Origin: Candidatus Aenigmatarchaeota archaeon
GTDB taxonomy: Archaea; EX4484-52
Direction of reading: 5' to 3'
Assembly (NCBI GenBank): GCA_023137195.1
Contig: JAGLPV010000008.1
Coordinates: 1-39,764, forward strand
DNA: 39,764 nt
This document shows, piece after piece, positions 2,756 through 39,764 of this stretch. Both the position numbers and the translations under genes were made by a program. Below the pieces are notes generated by a model, which saw only the letters and a program-made list of their open reading frames with translations, was not told the origin of the DNA and made no database searches. Position 1 is the stretch's first letter, and each line of letters starts with the position of its first letter.

Positions 2756-3921
2756 TTTGTGATGTATTGGTTGTAGGGGCAGGACCCGCCGGAAGCTCTG
2801 CTGCAAGAGTATGTGCAATGAATGGATTAAAAACAATTTTTATTGATAAAAGAAAAGAGATTGGAGTGCCTGCCTTATGTGCTGAGGGAATCGGTTCATA
2901 TTTGTTTTCATATCTTCCTGAAGGTATTGTTATTCCAAAAGAGCAATTGATATGGAAAATTGAGGGGATACGATTTTGCTGTGAAAATTGTATCATTGAC
3001 AAAACCGGCGGCTTTTGGGACGGCTATGCTGTGGACAGAACAAAATTTGACAAATGGCTCTCTTGCTTAGCGATAGAAAAAGGAGCCCAATTATTTACAG
3101 ATACAGAATTGATTGATTTAATTCAGGACAAAAACAAATATGTTAAAAAAGCAATAGTAAAAAAGCGGAGGAATATATTGGAAGTTTATCCAAAAATTGT
3201 GATTGGAGCAGATGGAGTTGACTCAAAGGTTTCAAAATTACTCGATTTGTATGAAGAAGAAAAATACAATATTATAGAAGTATATTCTTGGGAAATGAAA
3301 AACCTGAATTTAGAAAATCCAAATTTAGAGCAGATATTTTTTGAAGAATATGTCCCAGGAGGATATGCTTATATTTTCCCAAAATCAAAGACAAGAGCGA
3401 ATATCGGTGTAGGTGGTTTTTCATCTAAAGAAAAAATCAAAAAATGCTTTAGTAATTTTTTAGATAGTCCCTGTGTAAAAAAACAAATAAATGGAGGAAT
3501 AAAAATAGTTGAAAAAAGCAAAAAAGCAGTATTTGGTGATGTTGCAAAAAAAAATATATTCCGAAATGTAATACTTGCAGGAGATGCAGCAAACCATAAT
3601 TTAAAGCCATTTGTTGAGGGGATTTTGCCTGCAATAACTTCAGGAGACCTTTCGGGCAAACTGGCATCAGACATATCTAGAGGAAAAAATATTTCTCATA
3701 ACTATCATTTGAAAGAATTCAAAAAACTAATGCATCCTCATCATAGTGATTCAAAATATATAGAAAAATATATAATTAAATTAAATAAATCTAATAAAAA
3801 ACAAAAACATCTTCTTGCTTTTGGGTTGTGTATTGGGTTATTTGAACTTGAAAAAATAGAAGAATATGAAGCAATGAATTACGAAGAATTAAAAGAAATC
3901 TTAATTGAAAATGGAATGTGA
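2743..3921 (+). CDS. Geranylgeranyl reductase family FAD-dependent oxidoreductase (paralogue 1)
   Basis: GAGPAG FAD motif, CAEG, DRTKFD, GADG, PGGYAYIFPK (variant of YxWxFP), GDAA. Confidence 0.88.
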   Translation: MDKIICDVLVVGAGPAGSSAARVCAMNGLKTIFIDKRKEIGVPALCAEGIGSYLFSYLPEGIVIPKEQLIWKIEGIRFCCENCIIDKTGGFWDGYAVDRTKFDKWLSCLAIEKGAQLFTDTELIDLIQDKNKYVKKAIVKKRRNILEVYPKIVIGADGVDSKVSKLLDLYEEEKYNIIEVYSWEMKNLNLENPNLEQIFFEEYVPGGYAYIFPKSKTRANIGVGGFSSKEKIKKCFSNFLDSPCVKKQINGGIKIVEKSKKAVFGDVAKKNIFRNVILAGDAANHNLKPFVEGILPAITSGDLSGKLASDISRGKNISHNYHLKEFKKLMHPHHSDSKYIEKYIIKLNKSNKKQKHLLAFGLCIGLFELEKIEEYEAMNYEELKEILIENGM

Positions 3922-5041
3922 TGTATTGGTCGTAGGGGCTGGTCCTTCGGGTTCGCTGGCAGCAAAAACTATAGCTGAATCTGGACTAAACGTCATTTTA
4001 ATTGAGAGGAATAAAAAAATAGGAACTCCTGTCCGGTGTGCAGAAGGAATAAGTGCATATTTATTCAAAGATACTGGGATAAAAAAGCACAATTCCTTTC
4101 TTTGCCGGAAAATAAAGGGAACTAAAATTTATTTTTACAACGAGCAATATATATTGAGTGGCAAAACATGGCAGGGTTATGTAATAGACAGAAAAATATT
4201 TGACCCTTATCTTGCAAAACTAGCTCAAAAAGCAGGTGCAAAAGTATTTTCAAATGCGAATGCTGTTGAGATGAAAAGGGTGAAAAATGGCTGGATTGTT
4301 GGAGTTAATTTTGGTAAAATAAAAAAGCAAATAGAGGCAAAATTTGTCATTGGAGCAGATGGTGTTGAATCAAAAATAGGAAAATGGGCTGGTTTAGAGG
4401 ACAATAGCAATAGGGGCTTATTCAAATGCTTGGAATATGAAATGGATGATTTAAATATAGGCAAAAACGACAAATTTCATATTTGCTTTGGACAGGAATT
4501 TCCTGGTGGTTATGCCTGGGTTTTTCCAAAATCAAAGACAAGAGCAAATGTTGGAGTAGGAGTAAATGTCAAGAAAAATGCAAATCTAAAACAACTACTG
4601 GATTTTTTTATAAACAAATATCCAAATATAAATAAAATGATTGGGGGAAATTACAAAATTTTGGAAACCCGCGGCGGCTTGATTCCGGCAAATGGACCAA
4701 AAAAAATAGATGGTCTTGTGGGCGATAACATATTGCTTGTAGGTGATGCAGGAGAATTTGTGGAGCCGATTACCGCAGAAGGAATTGAGCCAGCAATGCT
4801 GTCGGGCATTGCCGCGGGTGAAACAATTATTGAAGCATTTAGAAAAAAAGATTTACGCAAAAATTTCTTAAAAATTTATGAGCAAAAATACAAGAAAAAA
4901 CATTATTCTAATGTAAAATTAGATGAATTAAATAAAATAAAAATATATTCAAACTTATTTTTTTATATATTTAATAAAAAATATATTCCGAAACGAATCA
5001 GAAAACTGTCATTGAATTTTCTTTTTAATTCAATCAAATAG
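3911..5041 (+). CDS. Geranylgeranyl reductase family FAD-dependent oxidoreductase (paralogue 2, DGGR-like)
   Basis: GAGPSG, CAEG, GADG, PGGYAWVFPK...NVGVG, GDAG..VEPITAEGI. ATG at 3911 preferred over TTG at 3905. Confidence 0.9.
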   Translation: MECDVLVVGAGPSGSLAAKTIAESGLNVILIERNKKIGTPVRCAEGISAYLFKDTGIKKHNSFLCRKIKGTKIYFYNEQYILSGKTWQGYVIDRKIFDPYLAKLAQKAGAKVFSNANAVEMKRVKNGWIVGVNFGKIKKQIEAKFVIGADGVESKIGKWAGLEDNSNRGLFKCLEYEMDDLNIGKNDKFHICFGQEFPGGYAWVFPKSKTRANVGVGVNVKKNANLKQLLDFFINKYPNINKMIGGNYKILETRGGLIPANGPKKIDGLVGDNILLVGDAGEFVEPITAEGIEPAMLSGIAAGETIIEAFRKKDLRKNFLKIYEQKYKKKHYSNVKLDELNKIKIYSNLFFYIFNKKYIPKRIRKLSLNFLFNSIK

Positions 5042-6317
5042 AAATTATATTAAATGTTTCATTAAACGCATGATATTCTTTTTTTGGAAAACAAATGTTT
5101 TCTCCAGCCGTATAAATCAATAAAAAAGAATTTTCTTTAAAATAATTATTTAATATATCTCTTACTGCATAAACATGATTACCTAATGAATCTAATCTTG
5201 CTGTGCAAGAGACAACAAATCCCATTTTTGGTTTATTTATATTGGTTGAAGCAATTGCTTTATTTACACAACCAACCATTTTTTTACCAGTTGTAGTTAA
5301 AATTTCTATATCCTTTCCTTTTATCCTGTAACTTAAAATAAAAATATTATTTATGATGCTGCCTACTACATGCGGGCATAAATAATCATCTTTATCTTTG
5401 AAACCTAAGGGATAAAAATAAGTAATATCATGAATTTTCTCTGTCAATTGTTCTTTTGTCAAACCTATGCTATTGAAAAAAACATCTGTTGCTGATTTTC
5501 CGTCTAATTCTTCTATAATTCTATTGTTTTGACTGCTTTTTGTTATTTTAAATTTTTTGCCTGTTGAATGCAACCCGTGCTCACTTCCAAAGCCGATATT
5601 TATATCTGTATTTATTTTCATAGCAACAATAGCATTTTCTTTAATTTGTTTACCAAAAAATTGATAATTTTTGATTATTTTGTCATCATCAGTGGAACTT
5701 CCACCAAAAACAATATCATCTTTATTTATGTGTTTTGTTAATTCACAAATAACTTCATCTTCCAGCCCATGTCCTTTTTGCAGATATTGTGTAGATTTTT
5801 TCAACAAAGCAGGTCCTATTTTTTCTGCAATTTTTTCTTTCAAAACCCACTGAGAACCAAAACCTGCAAAAGTTGGTTTAGTTGGTCCAGAAATCATATT
5901 CAAAAAAAGATTATTTTTGTATTTCTCTTTTCTTTGCTGTTTTTTAATCATCCCTTCACATTCCCTCGCCGCCTTCTGCGGATTCCTTTTTGTATTACGA
6001 CCAAACCCAACAGCAACATCCATATTCTGATAAGAAACGGCCATTGCCGAGGCACCATGAACAAAGCACCCTTCCTTACACATAAACCCCGCAACGGTCC
6101 CTCCAATCAACGGCGTTCCGGCTGGCAAAATCTCCCAGACGCCGTCCAGAAACTCCTGAAACCCGCCATATTTTTCATAATGAATAGTAGAATAAAGCAA
6201 AAAAAAATCCGGCTTTTTCCCGCCAAGACCGCTCATTGTTTTCTTAGCAACTTCTCTCCCTGCCTTTCTTGCATCCCACAACTCTGTCATCCCGACGGAT
6301 GCCTTAAAATCAACCAT
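5034..6317 (-). CDS. FIST N/C sensory domain protein
   Basis: PLIGGTVAG, FGGSSTDD, ELDGKSA, VSCTAR and YTAGE segments match the FIST_N plus FIST_C layout. ATG at 6317 preferred (ORF open to 6332). Confidence 0.82.
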   Translation of the reverse strand: MVDFKASVGMTELWDARKAGREVAKKTMSGLGGKKPDFFLLYSTIHYEKYGGFQEFLDGVWEILPAGTPLIGGTVAGFMCKEGCFVHGASAMAVSYQNMDVAVGFGRNTKRNPQKAARECEGMIKKQQRKEKYKNNLFLNMISGPTKPTFAGFGSQWVLKEKIAEKIGPALLKKSTQYLQKGHGLEDEVICELTKHINKDDIVFGGSSTDDDKIIKNYQFFGKQIKENAIVAMKINTDINIGFGSEHGLHSTGKKFKITKSSQNNRIIEELDGKSATDVFFNSIGLTKEQLTEKIHDITYFYPLGFKDKDDYLCPHVVGSIINNIFILSYRIKGKDIEILTTTGKKMVGCVNKAIASTNINKPKMGFVVSCTARLDSLGNHVYAVRDILNNYFKENSFLLIYTAGENICFPKKEYHAFNETFNIISI

Positions 6318-6321
6318 AGAT

Positions 6322-6687
6322 TCATCCAACAATCTTAATTATTTTTCTCCTCCCGTTCTCCATTGCAACTTCCAGAAGTCCGCGATTTGAAAGAGCGGGC
6401 ACAATACTTACTAAAGCCATATTAGATTCATGGAGAATGAAAAACATCACATCATATTTTTCCAGTTCAAAAAACATCTTGTCCAGCCCTTTTTTTGAAA
6501 ATCTTTCAATAACATTAAAAGTTTCATTAATGCTGTCTTCCAAAACCTCCCATGTATCAATAACTTCCTTTTCAAATTTATCTTTATCCGGAATTATTCC
6601 ACCCATTCCTTTTTCTATGACCATACAGGCGTATATGTCATCATATCTCATTAATTCATTAAGAACGTCTAATATTTTTAGTCCCAT
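6322..6687 (-). CDS. Small roadblock/LC7 (profilin-like) domain protein
   Basis: 121 aa with helix-strand-strand-helix-strands-helix pattern ending NRGLLEVAMENGRRKI; translationally coupled to the KaiC gene (TAATG at 6685-6689). Confidence 0.6.
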   Translation of the reverse strand: MGLKILDVLNELMRYDDIYACMVIEKGMGGIIPDKDKFEKEVIDTWEVLEDSINETFNVIERFSKKGLDKMFFELEKYDVMFFILHESNMALVSIVPALSNRGLLEVAMENGRRKIIKIVG

Positions 6688-7409
6688 TATAATTTTACAG
6701 CGATGCCGTCTTTTTTAATTTCCATTTCAAAAGACTTCAATGTATGTTTTATCCCTCTCATCTTTCTTACGCCTATTTTTCTTGTATCCAATGACTCGTA
6801 CACACTTAAAACAATTGATCCATCAGCAACAAATTCCTCTGCACCATATCTTGAAAGTTTGCCTCCCTGTCCCTCAACAATCTCCGTACTCATCATAGTT
6901 GTCGTATTTGCTTTCCTCAACCTGTCTATTACAAAAAAAAGACCTCTTCTTATCCCATATTCACCGGGAACAGATTCTATTCCCTCGTGCGCAACAAATG
7001 CAGCAAACAAAGATATGGGGTCAATCACAACCCTTGTTGCCTTTATATATTCAATATAATGTTCAAAAGAATTCAGACTCAAATCACCGCTCAATTCAAA
7101 AGGATTATATTGCTTTAAATATAATTTTTTTTGTTTTTCATACTTCTCAAAATCCCATCCGAACTGTGCGGCATCCTCACTGATCTGCTTTTTTGATTCT
7201 TCAAGAGTAATAAATAAGCATGTCTCTCCATTTTTCAGACCTTCATTAAGATATTGGCATAAAAATGTTGTTTTGCCGCAACCTGCACCGCCACTGACAA
7301 GAACTGTATGTCCTTCAGGGATTCCACCACCCAAAAGAGTGTCTAATCCAGAAACGCCTGTTTTAACCTTCTTAACTTTATTGGGCTTGGATTTTTTATT
7401 CAACATCAT
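6687..7409 (-). CDS. KaiC/RAD55 family single-domain ATPase
   Basis: TGVSGLDTLLGGGIP, Walker A GGAGCGKT, LEES, RVVID, EEFVADG and RKMRG. Start placed at the MM (7409/7406). Confidence 0.88.
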   Translation of the reverse strand: MMLNKKSKPNKVKKVKTGVSGLDTLLGGGIPEGHTVLVSGGAGCGKTTFLCQYLNEGLKNGETCLFITLEESKKQISEDAAQFGWDFEKYEKQKKLYLKQYNPFELSGDLSLNSFEHYIEYIKATRVVIDPISLFAAFVAHEGIESVPGEYGIRRGLFFVIDRLRKANTTTMMSTEIVEGQGGKLSRYGAEEFVADGSIVLSVYESLDTRKIGVRKMRGIKHTLKSFEMEIKKDGIAVKL

Positions 7410-7512
7410 ATTATAGTGAGTAAAAAGTATATAAAGATTTGGTATATATTTAGTGCTTTTTATCACATGGATGATTGCATATATATTTAAAAATTAACAA
7501 TTAAATAAGTAC

Positions 7513-9660
7513 ATGGAAATAAAAAACAAGGATTTTTCAAACCGGTGTTATTTTTCAAAAGACAATTCTTTTTTATGGAGAGATCTGGACAACAGTTTCA
7601 AAACAAAATGGTGTGGAATATGGAACAAAGACATCAAGTTCTTTGAGTATTTTGCCTACTGTGTCAATGGCACGTGGCTTACTCCAAACCTGTGTGAGAA
7701 AACAAAGGTTCAGACCAGCCAAACAATACACAATTATGTAGAAACAGAAAAAAACCTTGTAATTGAAGAAATAGTCTTTCCTAATAAAAACAGCATCATC
7801 TCTGTTCTTTCTCTAAAAAATACAGGAAAAGAAGCAAAAAAAATAAAAATAAATCTTGAATGCGCTGTAAATATAAGAGAGAAGGGAGAAAACTGGCACT
7901 TAAGAACATACCACCCTTCAAAAAATGATTTGAGAAAATGTGTTGTAGTGGAGTCTTACCTGAATACAGATAAATATAATGCAATCTATGGCTGCGGGAT
8001 GGCAAAGACGATTTTAAAAAATTCAAAAACAGCACCTAAAAAGACAAATACAAAAATAAATCTCCTACAGAACTACAAGGATCATTATCCTAATTCAAAA
8101 CAAAGGTGTTTCCTGAGCAGTGATTATTATGTGGAACTAAACATTGAGCCGGGAGAAAAGGTCCACCTTCCTTTCATATACTCATGCGCCAAAGAACAAA
8201 ATGATATGTACCATGAATATGATGAATCTGCATTGAAATGGAATGAAAAGAAAAAGGCATGGGCTTTGGGTCTAGAAGAAAAGCTAAAAGCAAAGATTGC
8301 AACGCCGGACAAATACATTGACAATGCTTTTGTGATGGCTCAGCATTCTTTATTGAGTATGATTCAAAAAACAGATTTTGGAGATGGAATGTATGCTGGA
8401 TTCCCTTGGTTCTTGTCATTCTGGTCGCGTGATACATTCTGGTCTTTGCTTGGAGTAAATGAACTTGGGTTCCTGGATGAGTCAAAAAAAATCATGTCTA
8501 CTATTGCATCATTTTACAACGAGGAAAAGGACAAAAAATTATTTTCTTATGGAATAAATGGACTGCCTACAAAAATAAGCATGAACAAGACATCACAATA
8601 CTACAGTTGCGATTTAAACCCCTTGTTTTTAACAGCATATCTGCACTATTCTTATTTGGGTGGGCAAAAAACGCAACTCCTGGATGCTGCGGAAAAAAAG
8701 ATAAAACACAACCTACGATTGGTTGATTATGCAGTGGATACAAATACCGCAAAAAACCAGCAAAAAGTTGAACATACCTGGATGGACACCATCATAAGAA
8801 GCGGAACTCCAATTGAAGTCCAGGCGCTCTGGACTGCTGCCCTCGGGAAAGAAACGGTCTTTGAAAAAATGAAACATAAAATCAATGTTGGTTTTTACAA
8901 TAATGAAGCAGATTATTTTTTCGACAGCTATAATACTGAAACAAAAACTATCGGCACAAAAATAAGACCCAATGCATTAGTTGCTCTAATGTTTAACCTA
9001 GTGGATAAAGAAAAAGCTGACAAGGTACTGGCTGTTGCAAAAAAAGAATTACATAGTAAATATGGTATAAGGACATTGTCAAAATACGACAAAAATTATA
9101 CGCCTGCTGCTTATCACAACGGGTGCTGCTGGGGATTGACCTCTATGTGGGGGGCATGCGCTTATTTTAATTACAATTACAATGATGATGGATTGGCTCT
9201 GCTTGAACAGGCGAGCAAACAGCAAATGAAAGGCAACCCTTATGGCTTTGACGAATGTAATGACAGCGACAGCGGTAAATCCCTTGGCGCTTCACCACAG
9301 GCATGGTCTGCAGGATTATTTGTATATGCTATTGATGCGTGTCTTTTTGGAATAAAAGGAGAAGAGAAAAACATAATTGTAATTGACCCACGATTGCCGT
9401 CAAAATGGCCTTACGCTGCGAGACTTGAAAAAACAATGAAGAAGAGTTTGTTTGATATCAAATTATTGAGAAGAAAGAGAAGCGGACACACTCTTCTCCA
9501 GATGGAGTTAACATTCAAAAAAGGAGCAAAAACCAATTTGATTAAAATAATGCGCCCAAGATCAAAAATGGAGGTTGTGAACGGATTTATAAAAGCAGGT
9601 AATGACAAATATACTCTTGTTGAAGCAGAAAACAAGACGGTGATTGTAATTGAAGAATAA
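7513..9660 (+). CDS. Glycogen debranching enzyme / amylo-alpha-1,6-glucosidase family
   Basis: AGFPWF..FWSRDT, TWMD, PIEVQALW, IRPN, YGIRTL, YHNG and QAWS motifs. Confidence 0.87.
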   Translation: MEIKNKDFSNRCYFSKDNSFLWRDLDNSFKTKWCGIWNKDIKFFEYFAYCVNGTWLTPNLCEKTKVQTSQTIHNYVETEKNLVIEEIVFPNKNSIISVLSLKNTGKEAKKIKINLECAVNIREKGENWHLRTYHPSKNDLRKCVVVESYLNTDKYNAIYGCGMAKTILKNSKTAPKKTNTKINLLQNYKDHYPNSKQRCFLSSDYYVELNIEPGEKVHLPFIYSCAKEQNDMYHEYDESALKWNEKKKAWALGLEEKLKAKIATPDKYIDNAFVMAQHSLLSMIQKTDFGDGMYAGFPWFLSFWSRDTFWSLLGVNELGFLDESKKIMSTIASFYNEEKDKKLFSYGINGLPTKISMNKTSQYYSCDLNPLFLTAYLHYSYLGGQKTQLLDAAEKKIKHNLRLVDYAVDTNTAKNQQKVEHTWMDTIIRSGTPIEVQALWTAALGKETVFEKMKHKINVGFYNNEADYFFDSYNTETKTIGTKIRPNALVALMFNLVDKEKADKVLAVAKKELHSKYGIRTLSKYDKNYTPAAYHNGCCWGLTSMWGACAYFNYNYNDDGLALLEQASKQQMKGNPYGFDECNDSDSGKSLGASPQAWSAGLFVYAIDACLFGIKGEEKNIIVIDPRLPSKWPYAARLEKTMKKSLFDIKLLRRKRSGHTLLQMELTFKKGAKTNLIKIMRPRSKMEVVNGFIKAGNDKYTLVEAENKTVIVIEE

Positions 9661-9661
9661 T

Positions 9662-9844
9662 ATGGCTTCGAGAAGAAAAGCAGTATTGAGTTTGTCCCTG
9701 GAACAGATAATCATCATAATTGGAATGGTGTTGTTTGCAATTATTGCCATACCTATTTTTGTCAAAATTGTATTTAATACAGAAAGCGCAATGGGGAGTT
9801 GGAGTGAAGAAATAATAGGAAGACTAAGTGGATTCGCCGGATAA
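9662..9844 (+). CDS. Small single-TM protein, possible class III signal peptide (pilin-like)
   Basis: MASRRKA then VLSLSLEQ and a long hydrophobic helix; fills the gap between the debranching enzyme and gapN with 1-3 bp spacing. Confidence 0.6.
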   Translation: MASRRKAVLSLSLEQIIIIIGMVLFAIIAIPIFVKIVFNTESAMGSWSEEIIGRLSGFAG

Positions 9845-9847
9845 AAT

Positions 9848-11314
9848 ATGTTTGATGAGATAAAATTAAATAAAGAATATAAATATTTTGATGGGTGCCG
9901 ATGGGTGCATTCGGCAGAATATAGAAAAATAGAGATAAAAAACCCTGTTGATGATTCTGTAGTAGGATGTATCCAGAATTGTACCGGAGACGAAATAATA
10001 AGAGTTGTAGAAACCCTGAAAGAAGGACAAAAAAGATGGGCTTCCAAAACAATAGATGAAAGAGCAACTATTCTTGACAAAGCCGCAGACATAATAGAGT
10101 CGCAGGTAGATTTTATTGGCAATATCCTATGCAGGGAAATCGCAAAACCCCTGAATGATGCAAAAGAAGAGATTCTTCGCAGCGCTCAGATTACGAGATT
10201 TACCAGTCATTCTGTCAGAACTATTGAAGGACAATATCTTCAAAGCGGAGTATTTTACAATACTAAAAACAACAAGCAGTGCCTTGTGAAGCGCGAGCCT
10301 TTGGGAATAGTTCTTGCAATCTCTCCTTTTAATTATCCTGTGAACCTGTCTTGTTCAAAAATAGCACCTGCTCTTGCAAGCGGAAACGCGGTTATTTTAA
10401 AACCACCATTGGAGGGGGCTATTAGTGCTTTTCACCTGGTTCAATGCTTTCTTGAAGCAGGGGTTCCTGGTGGAGTGATAGCGACAGTCACAGGAGAGTC
10501 GAAGAAAATAGGAGATATTCTTGTGCCTCATGAAGACATTTCCTGCATCTCTTTTACAGGAAGCACATCGACAGGAGAAATAATAGCAAGAAAGGCAGGA
10601 ATAAAAAAACTTTTATTTGAACTTGGAGGCAATGGGACTGCGATTATTTTGGATGACTGCGACCTTGAAAAAACCATAAATGATGTTATCCCAGGGGCTT
10701 TTTCTTATTCAGGGCAAAGATGCACAGCAATAAAGAGACTTCTTGTCCAGGACAAAATAGCAGGTCGGGCAATTGCTTTGATGAAGAAGAAAATTGAAAA
10801 ATTAAGTGTTGGTTCTCCTCTTAAAAACAATGATATTACTCCTCTTGTTGGTCTTCATCATGCTGAATTTGTCGAAAATCTGATAAATGGCGCAAAAAGA
10901 GGAGGTGCTAAAATAATTACCGGGGGTCGAAGAAAAGGCAATTTGATAGAACCTACTTTAATTGACAAAGTTGACCCGGGGATGAGTATTGCAAATGTCG
11001 AACAATTTGGTCCTGTGTTGCCTGTAATTCGATTCAAAAAAATAGACGAAGCTATTGAAATCACAAACACAACAAAATACGGGCTCCAGTCATGCGTCTT
11101 CACACAGGACATAGATAAAGCGTTTTATATTGCAGAAAGAATTCTGACCGGAACGATGAACATAAACTGCGCTCCTTCAAGAGGACCGGATACATTCCCC
11201 TTTTTAGGGGTAAAAAAATCAGGAATTGGAGTACAGGGGATAAAGGACAGCATACTGGAGATGACAAGAGAGAAAGTGATTGTAATAAAAACAAGCAAAA
11301 ATCTTTCAAAATAG
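9848..11314 (+). CDS. gapN: Non-phosphorylating NADP-dependent glyceraldehyde-3-phosphate dehydrogenase (ALDH family)
   Basis: ISPFNYPVNL, FTGS, ELGG, YSGQRCTA, EQFGPVLP, and a GapN-like C-terminus RGPDTFPFLGVKKSGIGVQG. Confidence 0.8.
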   Translation: MFDEIKLNKEYKYFDGCRWVHSAEYRKIEIKNPVDDSVVGCIQNCTGDEIIRVVETLKEGQKRWASKTIDERATILDKAADIIESQVDFIGNILCREIAKPLNDAKEEILRSAQITRFTSHSVRTIEGQYLQSGVFYNTKNNKQCLVKREPLGIVLAISPFNYPVNLSCSKIAPALASGNAVILKPPLEGAISAFHLVQCFLEAGVPGGVIATVTGESKKIGDILVPHEDISCISFTGSTSTGEIIARKAGIKKLLFELGGNGTAIILDDCDLEKTINDVIPGAFSYSGQRCTAIKRLLVQDKIAGRAIALMKKKIEKLSVGSPLKNNDITPLVGLHHAEFVENLINGAKRGGAKIITGGRRKGNLIEPTLIDKVDPGMSIANVEQFGPVLPVIRFKKIDEAIEITNTTKYGLQSCVFTQDIDKAFYIAERILTGTMNINCAPSRGPDTFPFLGVKKSGIGVQGIKDSILEMTREKVIVIKTSKNLSK

Positions 11315-11431
11315 ATTCTTCTTTATTTCAATAAAAGAGTCTTACGAAAATTACTTCTTTTAATGTTGTAAATAAACTCCTTGTGAAATTTTACTGCTTA
11401 TTTACAATGTGAACGATTTTTCACGAAAGTG

Positions 11432-11450
11432 TCTAAATTTGTACGTAAGA
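11432..11450. repeat. 19-bp dispersed repeat, copy 1
   Basis: TCTAAATTTGTACGTAAGA is the exact reverse complement of 17964-17982. Confidence 0.7.
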
Positions 11451-11506
11451 TACGGTTTATACACAACACAATAATATATTTATAAACTTCATCAATAGAA
11501 GAAAGT

Positions 11507-11914
11507 ATGAAATCCCAGGCAGCCATAGAATATATGGCAGTAGTTGTCATTTCTTTGCTTCTTGTCACCCCATTCATCCTGCTTGCTCAGAAGTCTGTAA
11601 AGGATATGGAATCTAAAATAGATTTGATCGGAGCAAAAGAAACATTAGATAAAATAGGTGATGCGGCAAAAATAGTGTATTCCCAGGGAGATCCGGCAAA
11701 ATTAACTGTTGATGTAAAATTTCCAAAAAACATTAAAGCCAGCAATATAACACATCAAATGATGTATTTCATTATAGAAACAAACTCCATGAATAATACA
11801 ATATTTAAACTCTTTGATTTTGATATAAATGGGACCCTTCCAACTGATTATGGAACGCACACGATAGTTTTGTCCAATATAAACAATGTTGTTAATATCA
11901 GTTATACGAGTTGA
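11507..11914 (+). CDS. Class III signal peptide (archaeal pilin-like) protein
   Basis: MKS|QAAIEY followed by a hydrophobic helix, with Glu at +5. Confidence 0.8.
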   Translation: MKSQAAIEYMAVVVISLLLVTPFILLAQKSVKDMESKIDLIGAKETLDKIGDAAKIVYSQGDPAKLTVDVKFPKNIKASNITHQMMYFIIETNSMNNTIFKLFDFDINGTLPTDYGTHTIVLSNINNVVNISYTS

Positions 11915-11916
11915 TT

Positions 11917-12315
11917 ATGCTAACAAAAAAAGCCCAAAGTGCTGTGGAACTTGTCGTGATGTTTTGTATGTTAAGTTTGATATTTACTGTTTTTGTTACA
12001 AATATAATTTATAAAAACGCAAACCTGAAAATACAAAAAGTAAATCAAAATTCACGTTATATTAGTGATTGGGTCTCTACAGAATTGAATAATGTGTACA
12101 TACAAGGGTATGGATACAGTAGGAATTTTACTCTTCCTGTTGATATAATAGGTTATAATTATAGTATTAGGATAGTTGATCATATGGTCTTGGTCTTTGT
12201 TGCAAACAATAATACATATCTGCGCAAAACAATTCCGGAAAATATTTCCGGAGAGTTAAAGAAAGGTTTGAATTGTGTGACAAATAAAAATGGAGTTATA
12301 TATGTTACTCATTGA
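11917..12315 (+). CDS. Class III signal peptide (archaeal pilin-like) protein
   Basis: MLTKKA|QSAVEL followed by a hydrophobic helix; GYGYSRNFTLP segment. ATG at 11917. Confidence 0.8.
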   Translation: MLTKKAQSAVELVVMFCMLSLIFTVFVTNIIYKNANLKIQKVNQNSRYISDWVSTELNNVYIQGYGYSRNFTLPVDIIGYNYSIRIVDHMVLVFVANNNTYLRKTIPENISGELKKGLNCVTNKNGVIYVTH

Positions 12316-12826
12316 AAAAAAGAGGAAAGCGCAGACAATTAGCATGGATTTTTATACGAGTCTTATTATTTTTATTATGATTCTCGGACTTAGTATATCT
12401 TTATGGGATGATTCTATAAAAGATGTTTCCTGGAGCATCCAGGTACAGGAAATGAACAATTATGCAAATAAAATAGCAGATAGTCTAATCCGGAGCCAGG
12501 GATATCCTTTAGACTGGACAAATGAAACTGTTGATGTCCTCGGTCTGGTTGAGAAAAGCCATATCTTAAATCATGAAAAAGCGCTTGAAATGAAAAATAT
12601 AAGCTCTGGTAAAATGGCTGGTTTGTTTGGGTATGCACCATATAAGTTATATATCCAAGTAAATAATATTTCTGACATGCCTGTTCTTATAGGTGGTGTT
12701 AATGTCACATGGGGGAATTACAACCACTCTCTTGCAAATTCTATAACAAAAACAACCAGGCATGCTCTGCTAAATAATAATAACACTATTGAAAGAGTAT
12801 CAATACTAGTATATATCTGGAACTAA
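12290..12826 (+). CDS. Class III signal peptide (archaeal pilin-like) protein
   Basis: KKRKA|QTISMDF followed by a hydrophobic helix; GYPLDW and GL motifs. Alternative start at 12302. Confidence 0.75.
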   Translation: MELYMLLIEKKRKAQTISMDFYTSLIIFIMILGLSISLWDDSIKDVSWSIQVQEMNNYANKIADSLIRSQGYPLDWTNETVDVLGLVEKSHILNHEKALEMKNISSGKMAGLFGYAPYKLYIQVNNISDMPVLIGGVNVTWGNYNHSLANSITKTTRHALLNNNNTIERVSILVYIWN

Positions 12827-16231: not shown

Positions 16232-17872
<1,641 letters not shown>

Positions 17873-18061: not shown

Positions 18062-18643
18062 TTATTGTCTTCTTTCAATCCCAACTAATAAAATGCCTGC
18101 AGCCATTAAAAGCCGCCTGTCTATATGAGGTTCTTCAGATATAGTCATTGAGTATTTGAGAACAAATGGATTAAAATGTTGTTCAATTTGAGCAATTTGC
18201 CTGTTGTTGCTCTTTATAATATAGTTTTGTGGAATTAAATTGATAAACCTGCTTAAAATAGCACCACCCGTACTTTTTTCTGTCAATATGCCTATTTCCT
18301 GTCCGCTGTTTGAAAGAAAAGTCCATTCATCTTTGAAAATAGATTTTATTCCTTTTCTTCTTATTGCGCCCACCTGCTCTCCTCTAATTGCATCTACCAC
18401 ATTATATGTTGCGCCAATGTCAAAAATCTGTGGGGTTTTAATTGTTAAAAGTTCCTGTCTCTGGCTTTCATCAGAATATATTCTAAAGTCCTCTTTTAGC
18501 TTAAATGGTTTTTGTTTTGAAAAAAAAACAAGTTTTCCTCTCTCATCATATGTGCGAAACTCCCCACCAAACAATTTGAAAAATTTTCTTCTAAATATAT
18601 ATTTATTGTGGGTAAATGCAGAGTTTAGTTCTGTTTCCATCAT
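18062..18643 (-). CDS. LURP-one/scramblase (Tubby C-like) family protein
   Basis: Repeated beta-hairpin units (KQKPFKLKEDFRIY, YNVVD..GAIRRKG, EWTF..GIL) and a C-terminal buried helix DRRLLMAAGILL. Confidence 0.7.
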   Translation of the reverse strand: MMETELNSAFTHNKYIFRRKFFKLFGGEFRTYDERGKLVFFSKQKPFKLKEDFRIYSDESQRQELLTIKTPQIFDIGATYNVVDAIRGEQVGAIRRKGIKSIFKDEWTFLSNSGQEIGILTEKSTGGAILSRFINLIPQNYIIKSNNRQIAQIEQHFNPFVLKYSMTISEEPHIDRRLLMAAGILLVGIERRQ

Positions 18644-30035: not shown

Positions 30036-31265
30036 TTATCTTTTTTTCTTTATCAATACTTTAGAAACGCGGTTTTCTATCACACTTTCAATAATCATTT
30101 CGTAATTTTTGTATTTGATTACGTCTCCAACGCCGGGGAGTTTATCTGCTTTTTTTGTCAAAAAACCATTTATTGTGTTGTACTCCCCTTCCGGGAGTTT
30201 TATTCCATGTTCTTCTAATTCATCGATAGTGGTCAGACCATCAACGACCAGATGTTCTTTTTTTCTTTTGAATATGCGTTTTTCTACTGTGTCTTTTTCA
30301 TCTTCTATTTCTCCTACAATTTCTTCAATTATGTCTTCTAAAGTCACAATTCCTTCAACAACCCCATATTCATTTATGACAACAGACATGTGTTGTTGTC
30401 TCTTGCGCATCTCTTCCATTAAAGTTCCTATTTCCTTATTCTCATGCACAAAATATGCTTTTTTTATGTAGTTAGCTATTGTTCCTTTCATGTTTGCTGC
30501 TATTTCAGCCAGAACATCCTTTGTATAGATAATTCCAATGATGTTGTCTTCCTTTTCTTTGTAAACCGGAAATCTTGAATACTGGTGTTTTTTTACAAAT
30601 GTCGCAAAATCAGTCATGTTCATTTTATTGTCTATCATGACTACTTTTGATTTTGGAGTCATGATTTCATCTACTTTTGTGTCACTGAAATCAAATAACT
30701 TGCTCATTATTTTTTTCTCGTGCTTGTCAATGATTCCTTTTTCTTCTCCTATTAAGACAGCACTTTTTAGTTCTTCTTCAGTCAACCCTTTTTGTTTGCT
30801 CATTTTTACTCCCAGTATAGTCGTTGTGTTTTTTGAGATAAGAGACAATAGATAAATTACAGGACTGAATAAGATGCAGGTAAATTCTATCATTTTTGCA
30901 GAATGCTTCATGAATGTTTTTGCCTTTGAGAAAGCTATTGTTTTTGGTGTGACTTCTCCAAATATTAGAAGGAGGAATGTAATCCCACCAATTGCTATCC
31001 CGACACCGCTTGAGCCATAAGCTATTGTTGAGAGGTGCGTTGCAATAGCAGATACAGTAACGTTTGCGATGTTATTGCCGATTAAGATAGCGATGATTAC
31101 ATTATGAGATTTCTTTTTTAATTTAGCAATTGTTTTTGCTCCTTTTTCCTTTTTTTCAAGCATTTTTTTTATCTGCATTTCATTTATTGTCAGGAATGCG
31201 GTTTCGCTTGCGGAAAAAAACGCAGATAAGATTAGAAAAAAGACAAATAGTGTTTCGTATATCAT
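30036..31265 (-). CDS. HlyC/CorC (CNNM) family transporter with CBS and CorC domains
   Basis: LSAFFSASETA, ILIGNN, FGEVTPK, IMTP, YSRFPV, EYG..GIVTLEDIIEEIVGEI. Confidence 0.93.
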   Translation of the reverse strand: MIYETLFVFFLILSAFFSASETAFLTINEMQIKKMLEKKEKGAKTIAKLKKKSHNVIIAILIGNNIANVTVSAIATHLSTIAYGSSGVGIAIGGITFLLLIFGEVTPKTIAFSKAKTFMKHSAKMIEFTCILFSPVIYLLSLISKNTTTILGVKMSKQKGLTEEELKSAVLIGEEKGIIDKHEKKIMSKLFDFSDTKVDEIMTPKSKVVMIDNKMNMTDFATFVKKHQYSRFPVYKEKEDNIIGIIYTKDVLAEIAANMKGTIANYIKKAYFVHENKEIGTLMEEMRKRQQHMSVVINEYGVVEGIVTLEDIIEEIVGEIEDEKDTVEKRIFKRKKEHLVVDGLTTIDELEEHGIKLPEGEYNTINGFLTKKADKLPGVGDVIKYKNYEMIIESVIENRVSKVLIKKKR

Positions 31266-35376: not shown

Positions 35377-35590
35377 ATTTACCACCTCTCTTTATTGATA
35401 ATCCCACTCAATCCTGCATCGGTTATTATCAATTCATTTAAAATTCTTGATGGTGGTTTTACCAACATATATATTAGAATATATAACTTATAAACTTTTC
35501 GTAAAATTTGTCCTCTTTTTACAAGTCAAATTCTTAAAAGTAGACTCTGGGTCTCTATAAACGAACCCTCTTCCTTTTTTTAGAAATCAA

Positions 35591-35678
35591 ACACAATCGA
35601 ACGGGCATTAAACGAAGTTTTGCGAAGAGAATATGGACGGAGACTACAAGTTGGCGTCTTTAAATCCTAATGTTGTGT
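35591..35678. mobile_element. attC-like recombination site 0 (degenerate, orientation ambiguous)
   Basis: AAC-GGGCA-TTAAACGA ... TCTTTAA-ATCCTAAT-GTTGTGT; shares TCTTTAA, CCTAATGTT and GACTRCAAGT words with the site at 37139-37259. Confidence 0.5.
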
Positions 35679-35738
35679 GTTTTTTTTGCAAGAAAAATGC
35701 CGGAGTGGAGTGCAGAGTATCATTTAGAGATTTTGCGT

Positions 35739-36167
35739 TTAGTTGCACTCCCATTGATTTACTGTAATAGATGAACCACAATACATATTTTTACCTGGTG
35801 AATTAGCGTCACAAGGACCAACATTTGTTTCCAATGTACCAATTACAGTCATTTTATTAGGGCAATTTATTTTTTCACTAGAAAGCAAAACAATTTGACC
35901 GCGGATTTTAGGGTCTAAATAACTTTGATATTGTTTTGAGTCATCTCCAATTATTTCAGGTGGCATTGTCATTATGGGATGTTGCATCACACCATTACCC
36001 GCATCCGGATTTGTGCCAGAAATTTTTATTGTTTTACCATCGCATTTATCCCATCTTAATTTATAATTACAATATTGATTATTTCCACCAATATTAAAAA
36101 AATAAATTGCCCCTGCCATGATTAATGCACATATAGTGATGATTGCAATGACTAGTTTTTTGTTCAT
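35739..36167 (-). CDS. Hypothetical exported/membrane-anchored protein (putative cassette gene)
   Basis: 142 aa with an N-terminal hydrophobic helix and several Cys; has its own TATA-like box at about 36190-36197; lies between attC-like sites. Confidence 0.75.
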   Translation of the reverse strand: MNKKLVIAIITICALIMAGAIYFFNIGGNNQYCNYKLRWDKCDGKTIKISGTNPDAGNGVMQHPIMTMPPEIIGDDSKQYQSYLDPKIRGQIVLLSSEKINCPNKMTVIGTLETNVGPCDANSPGKNMYCGSSITVNQWECN

Positions 36168-36212
36168 AGTTTTATAAGTTATATTCTAATATATAAATTT
36201 ATCTAGCAAAAT

Positions 36213-36294
36213 CTCTAACATACACGATTAGAAAAAGTCCGACTGAAAGAGGATTTGGGTCAGGCAAGGATTTTCTTTCTAATCGCTGTTATAT
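36213..36294 (-). mobile_element. attC-like recombination site 1
   Basis: Minus strand ATATAAC-AGCGA-TTAGAAAG ... TTTCTAA-TCGTGTAT-GTTAGAG; 82-bp imperfect hairpin with AAC/GTT ends. Confidence 0.7.
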
Positions 36295-36503
36295 TCTGCG
36301 AACGTAGCGAGAGCACGCAGTGTGGTATTGAGGAGTGAAACGACGAAGAAGTTTAGAGATTTCCGAGTAACAGCTAGACTAACATTAAGAAAAGCCCTCC
36401 TTTTTCTTTTATTTGAAATAAATTCTATTATAAATAAATAATCATCTCCAACAATTCTTCAAAAATAGTTTTTAAATCAATTTATTTGATAATAAACTGC
36501 CGT

Positions 36504-37028
36504 TTATTTGATTAACTCATTAAACTTTAAACATCTATCCTTATCCTCAGCATGACAAAAAGTTAAAACCTTTAATTTTTCATAATCTTTTTTAATTGCT
36601 GTTAATACACGATGATTTCCCATTAAAACTTCATTTTTTTCATTTATGATAATTGGAAGTTTATTTATTACTTCATCAATATCTTGTTCCAAAAGAAAAA
36701 CTCTTTTTTTTACTTCAGAACATTCTTTATATTTATTCCAAAAGTCAATCAATAACATCCCTGAAACGTCATTTATATTATCTAGATTATTATGTCTTGA
36801 ATCAACTTTTAATTTTTTAATATCAATTTCTACATATTTACAAAATTTATTTATATAATCACAATAAAATGGAATTTCACCTGCACCAAACTCTTTTTGT
36901 ATTTCTTCAATAGATAAATTCAAGGTCTTTTTTTTAATTTCATCTAACTTTTTAAAATTCGCTTTTTTAGAATTTGTAAATTTCCAATCCACATAAAAAT
37001 AATATTGTAATAAATTATTTGCTTCCAT
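36504..37028 (-). CDS. ParB/Sulfiredoxin-like domain protein (putative cassette gene)
   Basis: C-terminal LPIIINEKNEVLMGNHRVLTA resembles the ParB/Srx P-I-x-G-x-H-R core; very AT-rich. Confidence 0.6.
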   Translation of the reverse strand: MEANNLLQYYFYVDWKFTNSKKANFKKLDEIKKKTLNLSIEEIQKEFGAGEIPFYCDYINKFCKYVEIDIKKLKVDSRHNNLDNINDVSGMLLIDFWNKYKECSEVKKRVFLLEQDIDEVINKLPIIINEKNEVLMGNHRVLTAIKKDYEKLKVLTFCHAEDKDRCLKFNELIK

Positions 37029-37138
37029 ATTATTTATCCTCTTCTAATCTTTAAATATATTTCTAAATAAACCTACATTTCTTTCAATCTAAAAGGAGGG
37101 CTTTTCGTCAATTAATTAAAAAAAAATCTCAAAATTGA

Positions 37139-37259
37139 ATATAACATTAGGGTTAAAGAAAGTTTAGTTTTCCTCTGGAACGAAACGCAGTGAAGTGACG
37201 AGCTGAAAACTAAATTTGGGAGAGGACTGCAAGTCCGAACTCTTTAACTGTTGTTAAGT
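37139..37259 (-). mobile_element. attC-like recombination site 2
   Basis: Minus strand ACTTAAC-AACAG-TTAAAGAG ... TCTTTAA-CCCTAAT-GTTATAT; 121 bp with internal hairpins. Confidence 0.7.
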
Positions 37260-37384
37260 CGTAGGAGCGTAATGAAGTGAAGCGAGAGCCGGCAAGGCGT
37301 TACCGAGCCGAAGGCGAAGGAGTTTTTTCTTCTGCGTTAAGAAAATTTAATCTCCTATTTTGGGGTGGAACGGAAGCGCGCGCT

Positions 37385-37495: not shown

Positions 37496-38932
37496 ATGGA
37501 AGAAAAGGATTTCAAAGAATTATTAGACGAACTACTTTCCTATGGGCAAGAAACAGAATGGATTGAATTTAAGAAAAATAATTCTAGTCCTGAAGAAATC
37601 GGAGAATATATTTCTGCATTATCCAATTCTGCCTGCCTTTCAAAAAGAAATCATGGCTATTTGGTTTATGGTATTGATAGCGAGTCTTTGGATAAGGTTG
37701 GAACTAAAGTAAGTTTCAAAAATATGAAAAAAGGTGGACAGGAAATCAATCATTGGTTAGCTATGGGCTTAGATCCTAAAACAGATTTTAAGATAATTGA
37801 AAACATAATTGGGGATAAAAGAATTGTTATAATTGAGATAGATTGTGCAAATTCTAGACCTATCAGATTTAAAGGGGTTGCATATGTGAGAATTGGAAGC
37901 TCAAAAGATAAATTAGATAAGCATCCGCAAAAAGAGAAAAAGCTCTGGGATATTATTAATCATAAAAATTTTGAAGATGAAATTGCTCTTGAAAAAATCG
38001 ATGAAAACAAAGTTATTGAACTTTTAGATTATCCTGCTTATTTTAATTTAATGAAATTAGAATTACCAACAAATAAATCCGCTATCCTAGAAAAGTTGGA
38101 ACAAGAATGTTTAATTTTAAAGAAAGGCAAAAAATATTCTATAACAAATTTAGGAGGAATATTATTTGCTAAAGATTTATCCCAATTCCCAAATCTTTCA
38201 AGAGCAATAATTAGAATAATAATTTACAAAGGAAACAATAAATTGGAAACAATAAAAGAAGAATCAAACAATAAAGGGTATGCTGTTGCATTCCAAGAAA
38301 TAGCAAAATTCATAATGGACCAATTACCTACAAATGAAATAATTGAAAATTCATTAAGAAAAAATATTAGAATGTTCCCAGAGATAGCGATAAGGGAGCT
38401 ATTAGCAAATACAATAATTCATCAAGATTTTTCAGAAAGGGGAACAAGTCCAATGGTGGAGATTTATTCGAATAGACTTGAGTTTATTAATGCAGGAAAA
38501 CCTTTAATTAAACCTAGTAGATTTATAGATCATCCTCCAAAATCGAGAAATGAGAAATTGGCAGATTTTATGAGAATGATTAATATTTGTGAAAAAAGAG
38601 GAAGTGGAATTGATAAGGTTATTAATTTAGTGGAGGTGTTCCAACTTCCTGCTCCGGAATTTATTGCAGAAGAAGATTTTGTTAATGTAATTCTTTATGC
38701 TCATAGGCAATTTAAAGACATGACAAAAGAAGATAGGATTCGGGCGTGTTATCAGCATTGTGTTTTGAAATATGTTTTTAAGGAAGATATGACTAATGAA
38801 ACTTTAAGAAACAGATTTAATATTGACAAGAAAAACTATCCGATGGTTTCAAAAGTTATTAAAGATGCTATTGATGCGAAAGCTATAAAGAAAGATGAAG
38901 GGGCTAAAAGATATCTTCCAATTTGGGCTTAA
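37496..38932 (+). CDS. Schlafen/AlbA_2 domain plus HATPase_c_4 (RecG-like C-terminal) and winged-helix protein
   Basis: ETEWIEFK, ISALSNSA, LVYGID, YVRIGSS; AIRELLAN.IIHQD, SRNEKLA, CEKRGSG. Confidence 0.85.
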   Translation: MEEKDFKELLDELLSYGQETEWIEFKKNNSSPEEIGEYISALSNSACLSKRNHGYLVYGIDSESLDKVGTKVSFKNMKKGGQEINHWLAMGLDPKTDFKIIENIIGDKRIVIIEIDCANSRPIRFKGVAYVRIGSSKDKLDKHPQKEKKLWDIINHKNFEDEIALEKIDENKVIELLDYPAYFNLMKLELPTNKSAILEKLEQECLILKKGKKYSITNLGGILFAKDLSQFPNLSRAIIRIIIYKGNNKLETIKEESNNKGYAVAFQEIAKFIMDQLPTNEIIENSLRKNIRMFPEIAIRELLANTIIHQDFSERGTSPMVEIYSNRLEFINAGKPLIKPSRFIDHPPKSRNEKLADFMRMINICEKRGSGIDKVINLVEVFQLPAPEFIAEEDFVNVILYAHRQFKDMTKEDRIRACYQHCVLKYVFKEDMTNETLRNRFNIDKKNYPMVSKVIKDAIDAKAIKKDEGAKRYLPIWA

Positions 38933-39646: not shown

Positions 39647-39742
39647 TTCTCTGCTAAGCCGATTATCTCTTCGAAAGATAAGAACTCCCATATAAATTAG
39701 AAAAATTTGGGCGAAGCATTTTATCCTTGGTTATGCGAAATT

Positions 39743-39764
39743 TTAACTTGAGAATTCCCCACAG
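39743..39764 (+). repeat. Truncated repeat at window end, matching the copy at 18.8 kb
   Basis: TTAACTTGAGAATTCCCCACAG; the window stops inside the repeat. Confidence 0.7.

Follow-up and report, generated by a model that had tools for sequence, protein, structure and literature searches.

The window analysed here is the whole of contig C56 (39,764 bases) from the genome of a Candidatus Aenigmatarchaeota archaeon, assembled to 1.42 Mb in 57 contigs (35% GC, 85% complete), and its right-hand part is the far end of one integron-like cassette array, in which three structured DNA sites alternate with small genes. The archaeal RNase P RNA, 5S rRNA and three tRNAs encoded in the window identify the DNA as archaeal. 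Along the plus strand the order is core genes, site 1, a cassette with a 142-amino-acid (aa) gene, site 2, a cassette with a 174-aa gene, site 3 and an open third cassette, with the core genes to the left of the array coding for GMP synthase, a rubredoxin-glutamate-synthase-domain protein and a DUF2769 protein. The sites are termed attC-like by comparison with the recombination sites of integrons. Their scores come from two covariance models, R1, in which a three-way-junction structure was written for two copies on other contigs, and R2, built from 37 sites that all belong to other genomes and applied to the whole window with filters off.

35589-35680, plus strand: site 1, a decayed attC-like site at the far array end, adjoining the core genes (R2 26 bits, E 1e-3).
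35739-36167, minus strand: cassette gene, 142 aa, with an N-terminal hydrophobic segment (open reading frame; no Pfam match).
36211-36296, plus strand: site 2, attC-like (R2 34 bits, E 1e-5).
36297-36385, plus strand: G/A-rich and GC-rich tail after site 2 (GC 0.45-0.48 compared with ~0.2-0.3 around it, positive GC skew).
36504-37028, minus strand: cassette gene, 174 aa, near-orphan (open reading frame; ddrB-ParB match, E 0.22).
37137-37261, plus strand: site 3, the best-preserved attC-like site (R2 55 bits, E 1e-10; R1 37 bits).
37262-37345, plus strand: G/A-rich and GC-rich tail after site 3 (GC 0.51-0.54).
37496-38932, plus strand: Schlafen/AlbA_2 and HATPase_c_4 protein, 478 aa, the cargo of cassette 3 (PF04326, E 3e-16; PF13749, E 1e-20).

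R2 gives exactly three sites in the window, all on the plus strand, with the next best match at E 0.87, and these are the three AAC...GTT sites that a first-pass annotation had placed at 35591-35678, 36213-36294 and 37139-37259; a family model made from other genomes scores them at E values from 1e-10 to 1e-3. The three lie on one strand within 1.7 kb, compared with the two or more co-oriented sites less than 4 kb apart asked for in PMC9668308, and the plus strand is rich in G and A across all of them, as had been noticed. The AAC and GTT triplets are present in sites 2 and 3. The left nine nucleotides of site 3 (37137-37145) are the exact complement of the right nine of site 2 (36288-36296), the relation first pointed out as the R'/R'' complementarity of an excisable cassette, and the outer six nucleotides of this pair match at 6 of 6 positions. 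Folded as single-stranded DNA, site 2 (36213-36294) has a z score of -3.6 and beats 200 of 200 shuffles, and site 3 has a z score of -2.3 with 5 of 200 shuffles equalling it, so the imperfect hairpins of the first description stand for these two sites and not for site 1 (see below). The two genes between the sites, described at first as single, co-oriented orphans, are indeed single and both on the minus strand, and are orphans in part: a comparison with 5.8 billion proteins gives a single homolog of the 174-aa protein (94% identity), and the 142-aa gene has a homolog in DNA at 88% identity. The label ParB-like for the 174-aa gene is not upheld, the ddrB-ParB match listed above being below threshold. 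No tRNA lies near the sites.

Further copies in the genome came up with a profile that combined site 3 with a similar element on contig C1. R1 recovers site 3 and site 1 and has matches in 26 of 41 related genomes. With R2, 23 sites are found in this genome at E<=1, and at E<=1e-4 sites occur in 32 of the 42 genomes of the phylum set. The family consists of ~90-130-nt three-way-junction elements bounded by AAC...GTT. Its core is laid out as the R stem, a 5-nt spacer, a 10-bp stem, two small hairpins, the return of the stem and a 4-nt spacer, with the terminal part forming a conserved three-way junction and not a variable structure. The spacers had been given as 5 compared with 7-8 nt; the first figure holds, and on the folded plus strand the second is read as 4. 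For the alignment, 37 sites from 14 loci of relatives were fitted to the model, a fit that favours the structure, with the slid controls sharing this bias; the model-guided alignments replaced those made with MAFFT, which were poor because of the variable loop. Among the 37 sites 90.5% of cells are paired compared with 34-52% when the partners are slid by 1-3 columns, both-side changes occur in 27 of 30 pairs, and none of 500 shuffles reaches any of the measures. The pair positions of the terminal TAAC...GTTA are kept in 33-34 sequences each, with at most two exceptions per pair (37 sites aligned).

The two small hairpins indicate which strand would fold and in what form. On the model strand only, hairpin B ends in a G-N-A triloop in 33 of 60 distinct sites, where the closing pair is mostly C-G, and hairpin C does so in 45 of 60; passages of PMC13037366 and PMC3201870 describe mini-hairpins with such loops as extraordinarily stable in DNA. 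Mispairs of the G-T and A-C kinds occur equally often (33 vs 29), so no RNA-type wobble bias is present. In the window the stable loops are carried by the plus strand, which is the complement of the two cassette genes, suggesting that the plus strand folds as single-stranded DNA; this folding matches the bottom-strand rule given for integrons in review text. The same features bear on the reading of the sites as a structured non-coding RNA or a transcript-end element (terminator, insulator or untranslated-region structure) on accessory genes, to which we attach scarcely any probability. Such an element would account for GC-rich islands in AT-rich DNA, strong covariation and TATA-like boxes nearby. 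It would be expected to favour G-U over A-C, which the mispair counts do not, and to the extent of those sources the triloops are typical of DNA mini-hairpins. It also leaves the cassette-wise pairing, the AAC boundaries and the attI-like site described below unexplained. Rfam has nothing at the three sites either at the gathering cut-off or at E<=10 (it holds no attC family), and there is no RNA run among the sequencing runs that contain the stretch.

The sites are arranged in arrays. In relatives they form rows of 2-5 sites placed 0.5-5 kb apart, which keep to a single strand in 11 of 11 loci with at least two sites, and the close clusters that this genome has on C56, C1, C15 and C45 likewise keep to one strand each. 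The complementarity seen between sites 2 and 3 was examined across the arrays by taking the six nucleotides outside each triplet and comparing the right flank of site k with the complement of the left flank of site k+1; the pairs on contigs C22 and C37 and sites with AAC or GTT misplaced were left out. Of the 29 neighbouring pairs, 23 match at five or more of six positions and 12 match perfectly (mean 4.86), making the R'/R'' relation a general rule. When the left and right flanks of a single site are compared, 6 of 51 match this well (mean 3.20); neighbours paired the other way round have a mean of 3.43, and random pairs from different loci reach this level in 13% (mean 3.08); none of 20,000 random draws attains the observed mean (permutation p < 5e-5). 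The window itself contributes one perfect pair (sites 2 and 3) and one failure (sites 1 and 2). The pattern is the one that crossover at the triplet would produce, the outer bases travelling with the cargo and not with the core.

The cassette boundaries agree with this position. The 142-aa gene lies in 88% identical DNA (460/520) in the same-genus genome G001, where it is likewise between two sites and has other neighbours. The homology begins at 36218, a position that immediately follows the G of GTT when the gene strand is read and falls between A and C on the plus strand, identifying the left AAC of site 2 at 36217-36219 as the cassette boundary. In two distant loci, from genomes titled Pacearchaeota and Parvarchaeum, a 2.5-kb three-gene block is common at 84-88% identity and spans the AAC of one site, its core and the cargo up to the AAC of the next. 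The boundaries fall at AAC, and therefore a cassette is defined as a core together with the cargo that lies to the right of it along the folded strand, the cut falling at the left AAC. The purine-rich tail belongs to the same cassette as the core that precedes it. Tails of 60-90 nt, placed right after GTT and the six nucleotides, are also seen in distant genomes (loci L065, L066, L074, L079, L080, L093, L100 and L103). The outer R-box pairing, the triplet boundaries and the one cassette found in another context in G001 bear out the initial view of an excisable, mobile cassette array. Of the window's own locus only guaA is kept in two same-genus genomes (73-75% identity), where its flanks carry other genes and no site (best E 0.06). 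Several assembled contigs of the metagenome runs end or diverge exactly at, or close to, 36218 and 37142-37145; this agrees with the boundaries and proves nothing.

Pairing and boundaries also decide against selfish palindromic repeats of the miniature inverted-repeat transposable element (MITE), repetitive extragenic palindromic (REP) or palindrome-associated transposable element (PATE) type, spread by a transposase and accumulating in accessory regions, an origin we consider highly improbable. Like MITEs and the REP/REPIN elements mobilized by RAYT transposases (REP-associated tyrosine transposases), the sites are short, structured, multi-copy intergenic DNA, and contigs often break at them. 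A MITE or REP is expected to have paired ends within one copy and a random orientation, in contrast to the sites, where the flanks of a single site are complementary at the level of chance (mean 3.20 vs 3.08 for random pairs), cargo flanks pair in most cases and orientation is uniform. In addition the block shared between distant loci takes in core plus cargo, cargo stands between copies, and the sites are linked to a tyrosine recombinase gene, relative to which they have a fixed position and strand.

The window has no integrase, as originally stated, and contains no tyrosine recombinase. The genome has two, on contigs C1 and C45, and both pass NF040815, the NCBIfam equivalog model for archaeal XerA (curated cut-off 220), with 257.7 bits for C1 and 224.5 bits for C45. 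Against the IntI model TIGR02249 (cut-off 265) they reach 215.9 and 186.7 bits, and no IntI-type integrase over this cut-off occurs in any of 41 genomes (this one and 40 relatives). All TIGR02249 matches fall in two pieces (1-180 and ~237-315), skipping positions ~180-237. Among solved structures the nearest are those of Pyrococcus and Thermoplasma XerA (4a8e, 5hxy), followed by IntI4 in two stretches; for IntI4 (2a3v) the matched stretch listed is chain residues 242-318. The search for a recombinase in the genome thus gave no IntI-type enzyme over the cut-off and two XerA-scoring ones. The system is not placed in the canonical integron family because the IntI-specific extra domain, located near patch III, is absent wherever examined.

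For the same reasons a reading as a canonical integron remnant is not favoured. As a cluster of attC sites lacking an integron-integrase (CALIN), the window would hold attC sites served in trans by an IntI-type integrase from the unassembled 15% of the genome or from another organism, which we judge very unlikely. The AAC...GTT ends, the R-spacer-L layout, the arrays and the cassette-wise pairing are all features of attC, and the genome is only 85% complete. In the passages of PMC9668308 (Ghaly et al. 2022) archaeal integrons are reported from 75 genomes, mostly as CALINs whose attC sites recombine with IntI1, together with six IntI proteins that have the extra domain; the passages of its Data S1 name two Aenigmatarchaeota genomes, both of another order. 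The nine archaeal attC sites published there are, as far as those passages describe them, GC-rich simple hairpins with a bulged L box, in contrast to the sites of the present family, which are rich in A and T, have conserved joiners in a three-way junction and show no evident extrahelical base. By structure, and by comparison with this part of the published site descriptions, the sites look distinct from canonical attC. The IntI model result over 41 genomes and the gap at ~180-237 stand against a CALIN, as do arrays that adjoin an Xer-type gene with an attI-like site. The further claim that the sites may define a non-canonical, lineage-specific class is borne out by the covariation of the structure and by the co-oriented arrays in relatives.

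The association with the Xer-type gene extends beyond this genome. Homologs of the C1 protein with 50-69% identity are present in metagenome-assembled genomes titled Aenigmatarchaeota, Pacearchaeota, Woesearchaeota, Nanoarchaeota and Parvarchaeum. R2 was scanned over 80 recombinase loci (42 archaeal, 38 bacterial; 1.08 Mb), and the 58 matches at E<=0.1 all lie in archaeal loci, with none in bacterial ones and 53 on the recombinase strand. The 52 sites at E<=0.005 divide into 45 upstream on the same strand, 2 upstream on the opposite strand, 4 downstream on the same strand and 1 downstream on the opposite strand, although 312 kb of downstream DNA was scanned vs 172 kb upstream. Where at least 400 nt of upstream DNA is available, 21 of 30 loci have an upstream site, the nearest lying 165-900 nt from the start in 14. 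Before the recombinase start, the complement of GTT and the six following nucleotides of the last site recurs at 8 or more of 9 positions in 18 of 21 loci (10 perfect), compared with 27 of 420 cross-locus controls (8 perfect). This attI-like element lies mostly ~30-80 nt before the start, and is followed by a lineage-specific simple palindrome and not by a three-way core. On contig C1 the sites at 530-620 and 862-960 are followed by a large cassette with the gene of a 1602-aa DUF4011 helicase-nuclease, by the attI-like end site at 6521-6529 (8/9) and then by the recombinase.

A tree of 72 recombinases, for which 33 recombinase loci were fetched, separates the two types (contig-end fragments and one distant 405-aa row were left out). 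It has two big clades, each at 90 in the SH-like approximate likelihood ratio test (SH-aLRT) under a quick search. The C1-type clade has 51 rows, including all Pacearchaeota and Woesearchaeota homologs, of which 23 are array-linked, and many of its array-less rows lie at the start of a contig, where upstream DNA is missing; arrays also adjoin a long-branch pair that comes from family f6. An array adjoins none of the 18 genes in the housekeeping clades, made up of the C45-type clade (13 rows, one per family-level lineage) and an f4-specific clade (5 rows). All 14 genomes with a C1-type or f6-type gene have sites, in a set of incomplete and related genomes. The ten genomes without sites have only housekeeping types or none found. 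From gene neighbourhood, the array recombinase is most likely the Xer-derived paralog of the C1 type.

The tree and the genome counts also bear on a variant in which the same cassette mechanics are run by the housekeeping XerA at a dif-like site, in the manner of integrative mobile elements exploiting Xer (IMEX), with the array-linked paralog a passenger or regulator. This we regard as unlikely. Both paralogs pass the XerA model and have XerA as their closest structures, genomes that yielded the housekeeping type alone (G002, G005, G007, G009 and G017) also have sites, and a perfect palindrome with an R-box-like arm precedes the housekeeping paralog. Set against these are the contrast between 0 of 18 and 23 of 51 array-linked genes, the presence of sites in all 14 genomes with the C1-type or f6-type gene, and the six site-less genomes with a fetched recombinase locus, which carry housekeeping types only, the genomes being incomplete.

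As a separate observation, the palindrome on contig C45 is a perfect 10-6-10 at ~31040-31070 (~3040-3070 of locus L009), ~40 nt upstream of the housekeeping-type XerA; its arm resembles one R-box class, and it may be a dif-like site.

We hold it highly probable that the locus belongs to an integron-like cassette array, with a lineage-specific attC-like class of sites and an Xer-derived recombinase. In the mechanism proposed, a cassette on the plus strand would consist of the C of AAC, the folded core, GTT with six private nucleotides, the G/A-rich tail with the cargo, and finally the complement of the six nucleotides and AA. The plus strand would fold when single-stranded, with the outer R stem, the unpaired spacer and the inner stem mimicking the arm-spacer-arm core site of a tyrosine recombinase. 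The recombinase would cut between the A and the C of the left AAC, and the cut strand would be exchanged with another such site or with the attI-like site beside the recombinase gene, so that cassettes could be excised, inserted and reshuffled. The enzyme would be of the C1 type, without the extra IntI domain and encoded at the array head on the folded strand, with one copy on contig C1.

A number of observations weigh against this interpretation. The single-stranded fold of site 1 has a z score of +0.74, with 151 of 200 shuffles equalling it, the left R box of this site is degenerate, and its outer six nucleotides pair with those of site 2 at 1 of 6 positions. The fold being at chance level, site 1 is taken to be a decayed member of the family and not a good hairpin. 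The G001 homology stops at 35701, 20 nt short of site 1, so the 142-aa cassette is not clean on that side. In the assembled short contigs of four metagenome runs no joint of a cassette excised at AAC/GTT was found. The inner stem shows no evident extrahelical base. In the genome's own phylum only ~7 of 35 recombinase loci have a site within ~5 kb, and the link between recombinase and sites is one of neighbourhood. Co-orientation has exceptions: contig C22 has sites at 16759-16857 (plus) and 18069-18175 (minus), 1.3 kb apart, and contig C37 carries sites on both strands over 22 kb. Sites are also found singly between core genes. Cargo orientation relative to the sites is mixed in raw lists of open reading frames (21 same and 30 opposite in one count, 23 and 20 in another), and was therefore rejected as a defining trait; classical integron arrays are more uniform in this respect. 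Finally, the related genomes are non-independent samples.

Two side observations belong here. The C22 pair is the sole close pair in the genome that breaks co-orientation. A candidate joint from 35490 to 36463 was seen among the run contigs and rejected, its shorter side of 24 letters being too weak to use.

Compared with integrons, the array shares the division into cassettes by imperfect palindromes with AAC/GTT, the R-spacer-L layout, the assignment of the outer R-box bases to the adjoining cassette, crossover at the triplet, a preference for one strand in folding, a recombinase gene at the array head with an attI-like site, and a cargo rich in orphans, secreted proteins and restriction-modification genes. 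It differs in a recombinase that scores as XerA and is without the ~35-residue IntI-specific domain, in sites with a conserved three-way junction, G-N-A mini-hairpins, a purine-rich tail and no evident extrahelical bases, in spacers of 5 and 4 nt and in the mixed orientation of the cargo. IMEX elements use XerCD at dif; one of them is the cholera toxin phage CTX, whose integrating form is a folded single strand. With these the array would have in common an Xer-type recombinase acting on a folded single-stranded site, a property proposed here from structure, and it resembles them in having tandem arrays at one chromosomal site; it differs in its small cassettes with a conserved site each, placed beside a dedicated paralog, in contrast to phage genomes. 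The dif modules of Acinetobacter plasmids are flanked by pdif (plasmid dif; XerC-XerD) sites according to the passages of PMC10132070. They too are discrete gene modules bounded by Xer-type sites and found in many contexts. The pdif sites are plain 28-bp double-stranded sequences that alternate in orientation, unlike the 90-130-nt, folded and co-oriented sites with cassette-wise R-box pairing described here.

On balance it is probable that a second kind of integron exists in several phyla of DPANN archaea, with a plain Xer-derived integrase and three-way-junction sites capped by DNA mini-hairpins. Identity between phyla is 50-69% for the C1-type recombinases, compared with ~37-53% for the housekeeping XerA within one order. 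The C1-type enzymes are thus more alike between phyla than XerA is within one order, and therefore the platform may itself be passed from lineage to lineage. It could be related to the Xer-like ancestor from which bacterial integrons descend, or the same mechanism could have been invented independently. A search of papers outside the subscription journals, and passages of two reviews on tyrosine recombinases, gave no account of archaeal cassette arrays linked to Xer. Integron recombination of folded single-stranded sites is held to need the extra IntI domain in passages of PMC4889954 and PMC9668308; if the present interpretation is true, that domain is not required for this recombination, and the system offers a handle on how integrons arose from Xer. 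It would also explain the swapping of orphan, surface and restriction-modification genes in genome-reduced DPANN archaea, and would mean that surveys by IntI and canonical attC models undercount archaeal integron-like systems.

Beyond site 3, cassette 3 is composed of the tail, the Schlafen/AlbA_2-HATPase gene and two small open reading frames, and has no further site before the contig end. The remaining features of the region are as follows.

35724-35736 and 36206-36218: 13-nt perfect private inverted repeat around the 142-aa gene (19 nt in G001).
36389-36404 and 37091-37106: 16-nt perfect private inverted repeat around the 174-aa gene (from a repeat search).
39679-39764, plus strand: first part of a second repeated module, truncated where the contig ends (BLAST matches to C1:668-814, C1:6290-6500 and C45:33810-33949, minus).

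The last 24 nt of the contig (39741-39764) are identical to ends of C1, C6, C19, C38, C39 and C43, and the assembly breaks here in a further repeat. The second module is ~150-200 nt long, with a T-run, a TATA-like box and two G-N-A mini-hairpins, and elsewhere it lies 50-150 nt before a site or an attI-like site. The contig end cuts this module, and therefore the array most likely continues beyond the contig, running on to a further site or to a recombinase gene lost by assembly. The array may be served in trans, as the first-pass annotation proposed, or by a recombinase encoded at its own missing end. The module also contains what look like permuted halves of a site.

The cargo between sites in the family consists of small open reading frames, many of which begin with a hydrophobic or lipoprotein-like N-terminal segment, together with a DpnII-type restriction-modification set and further genes of defence type. 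On contig C45 a 6.8-kb island at 33682-40652 (5683-12653 of locus L009) is bracketed by two same-strand sites and carries the genes of a 1199-aa protein of no family, two methylases and a DpnII endonuclease. In locus L103 the same two-gene content appears twice in one array (3238-4391 and 7859-9106), with 372 nt at 90.6% identity, which suggests that one cassette arose as a duplicate of another in this array. The stretch itself is present in four runs, all from a single study with the label cold seep metagenome, and a small part of it in three runs from marine sediment.

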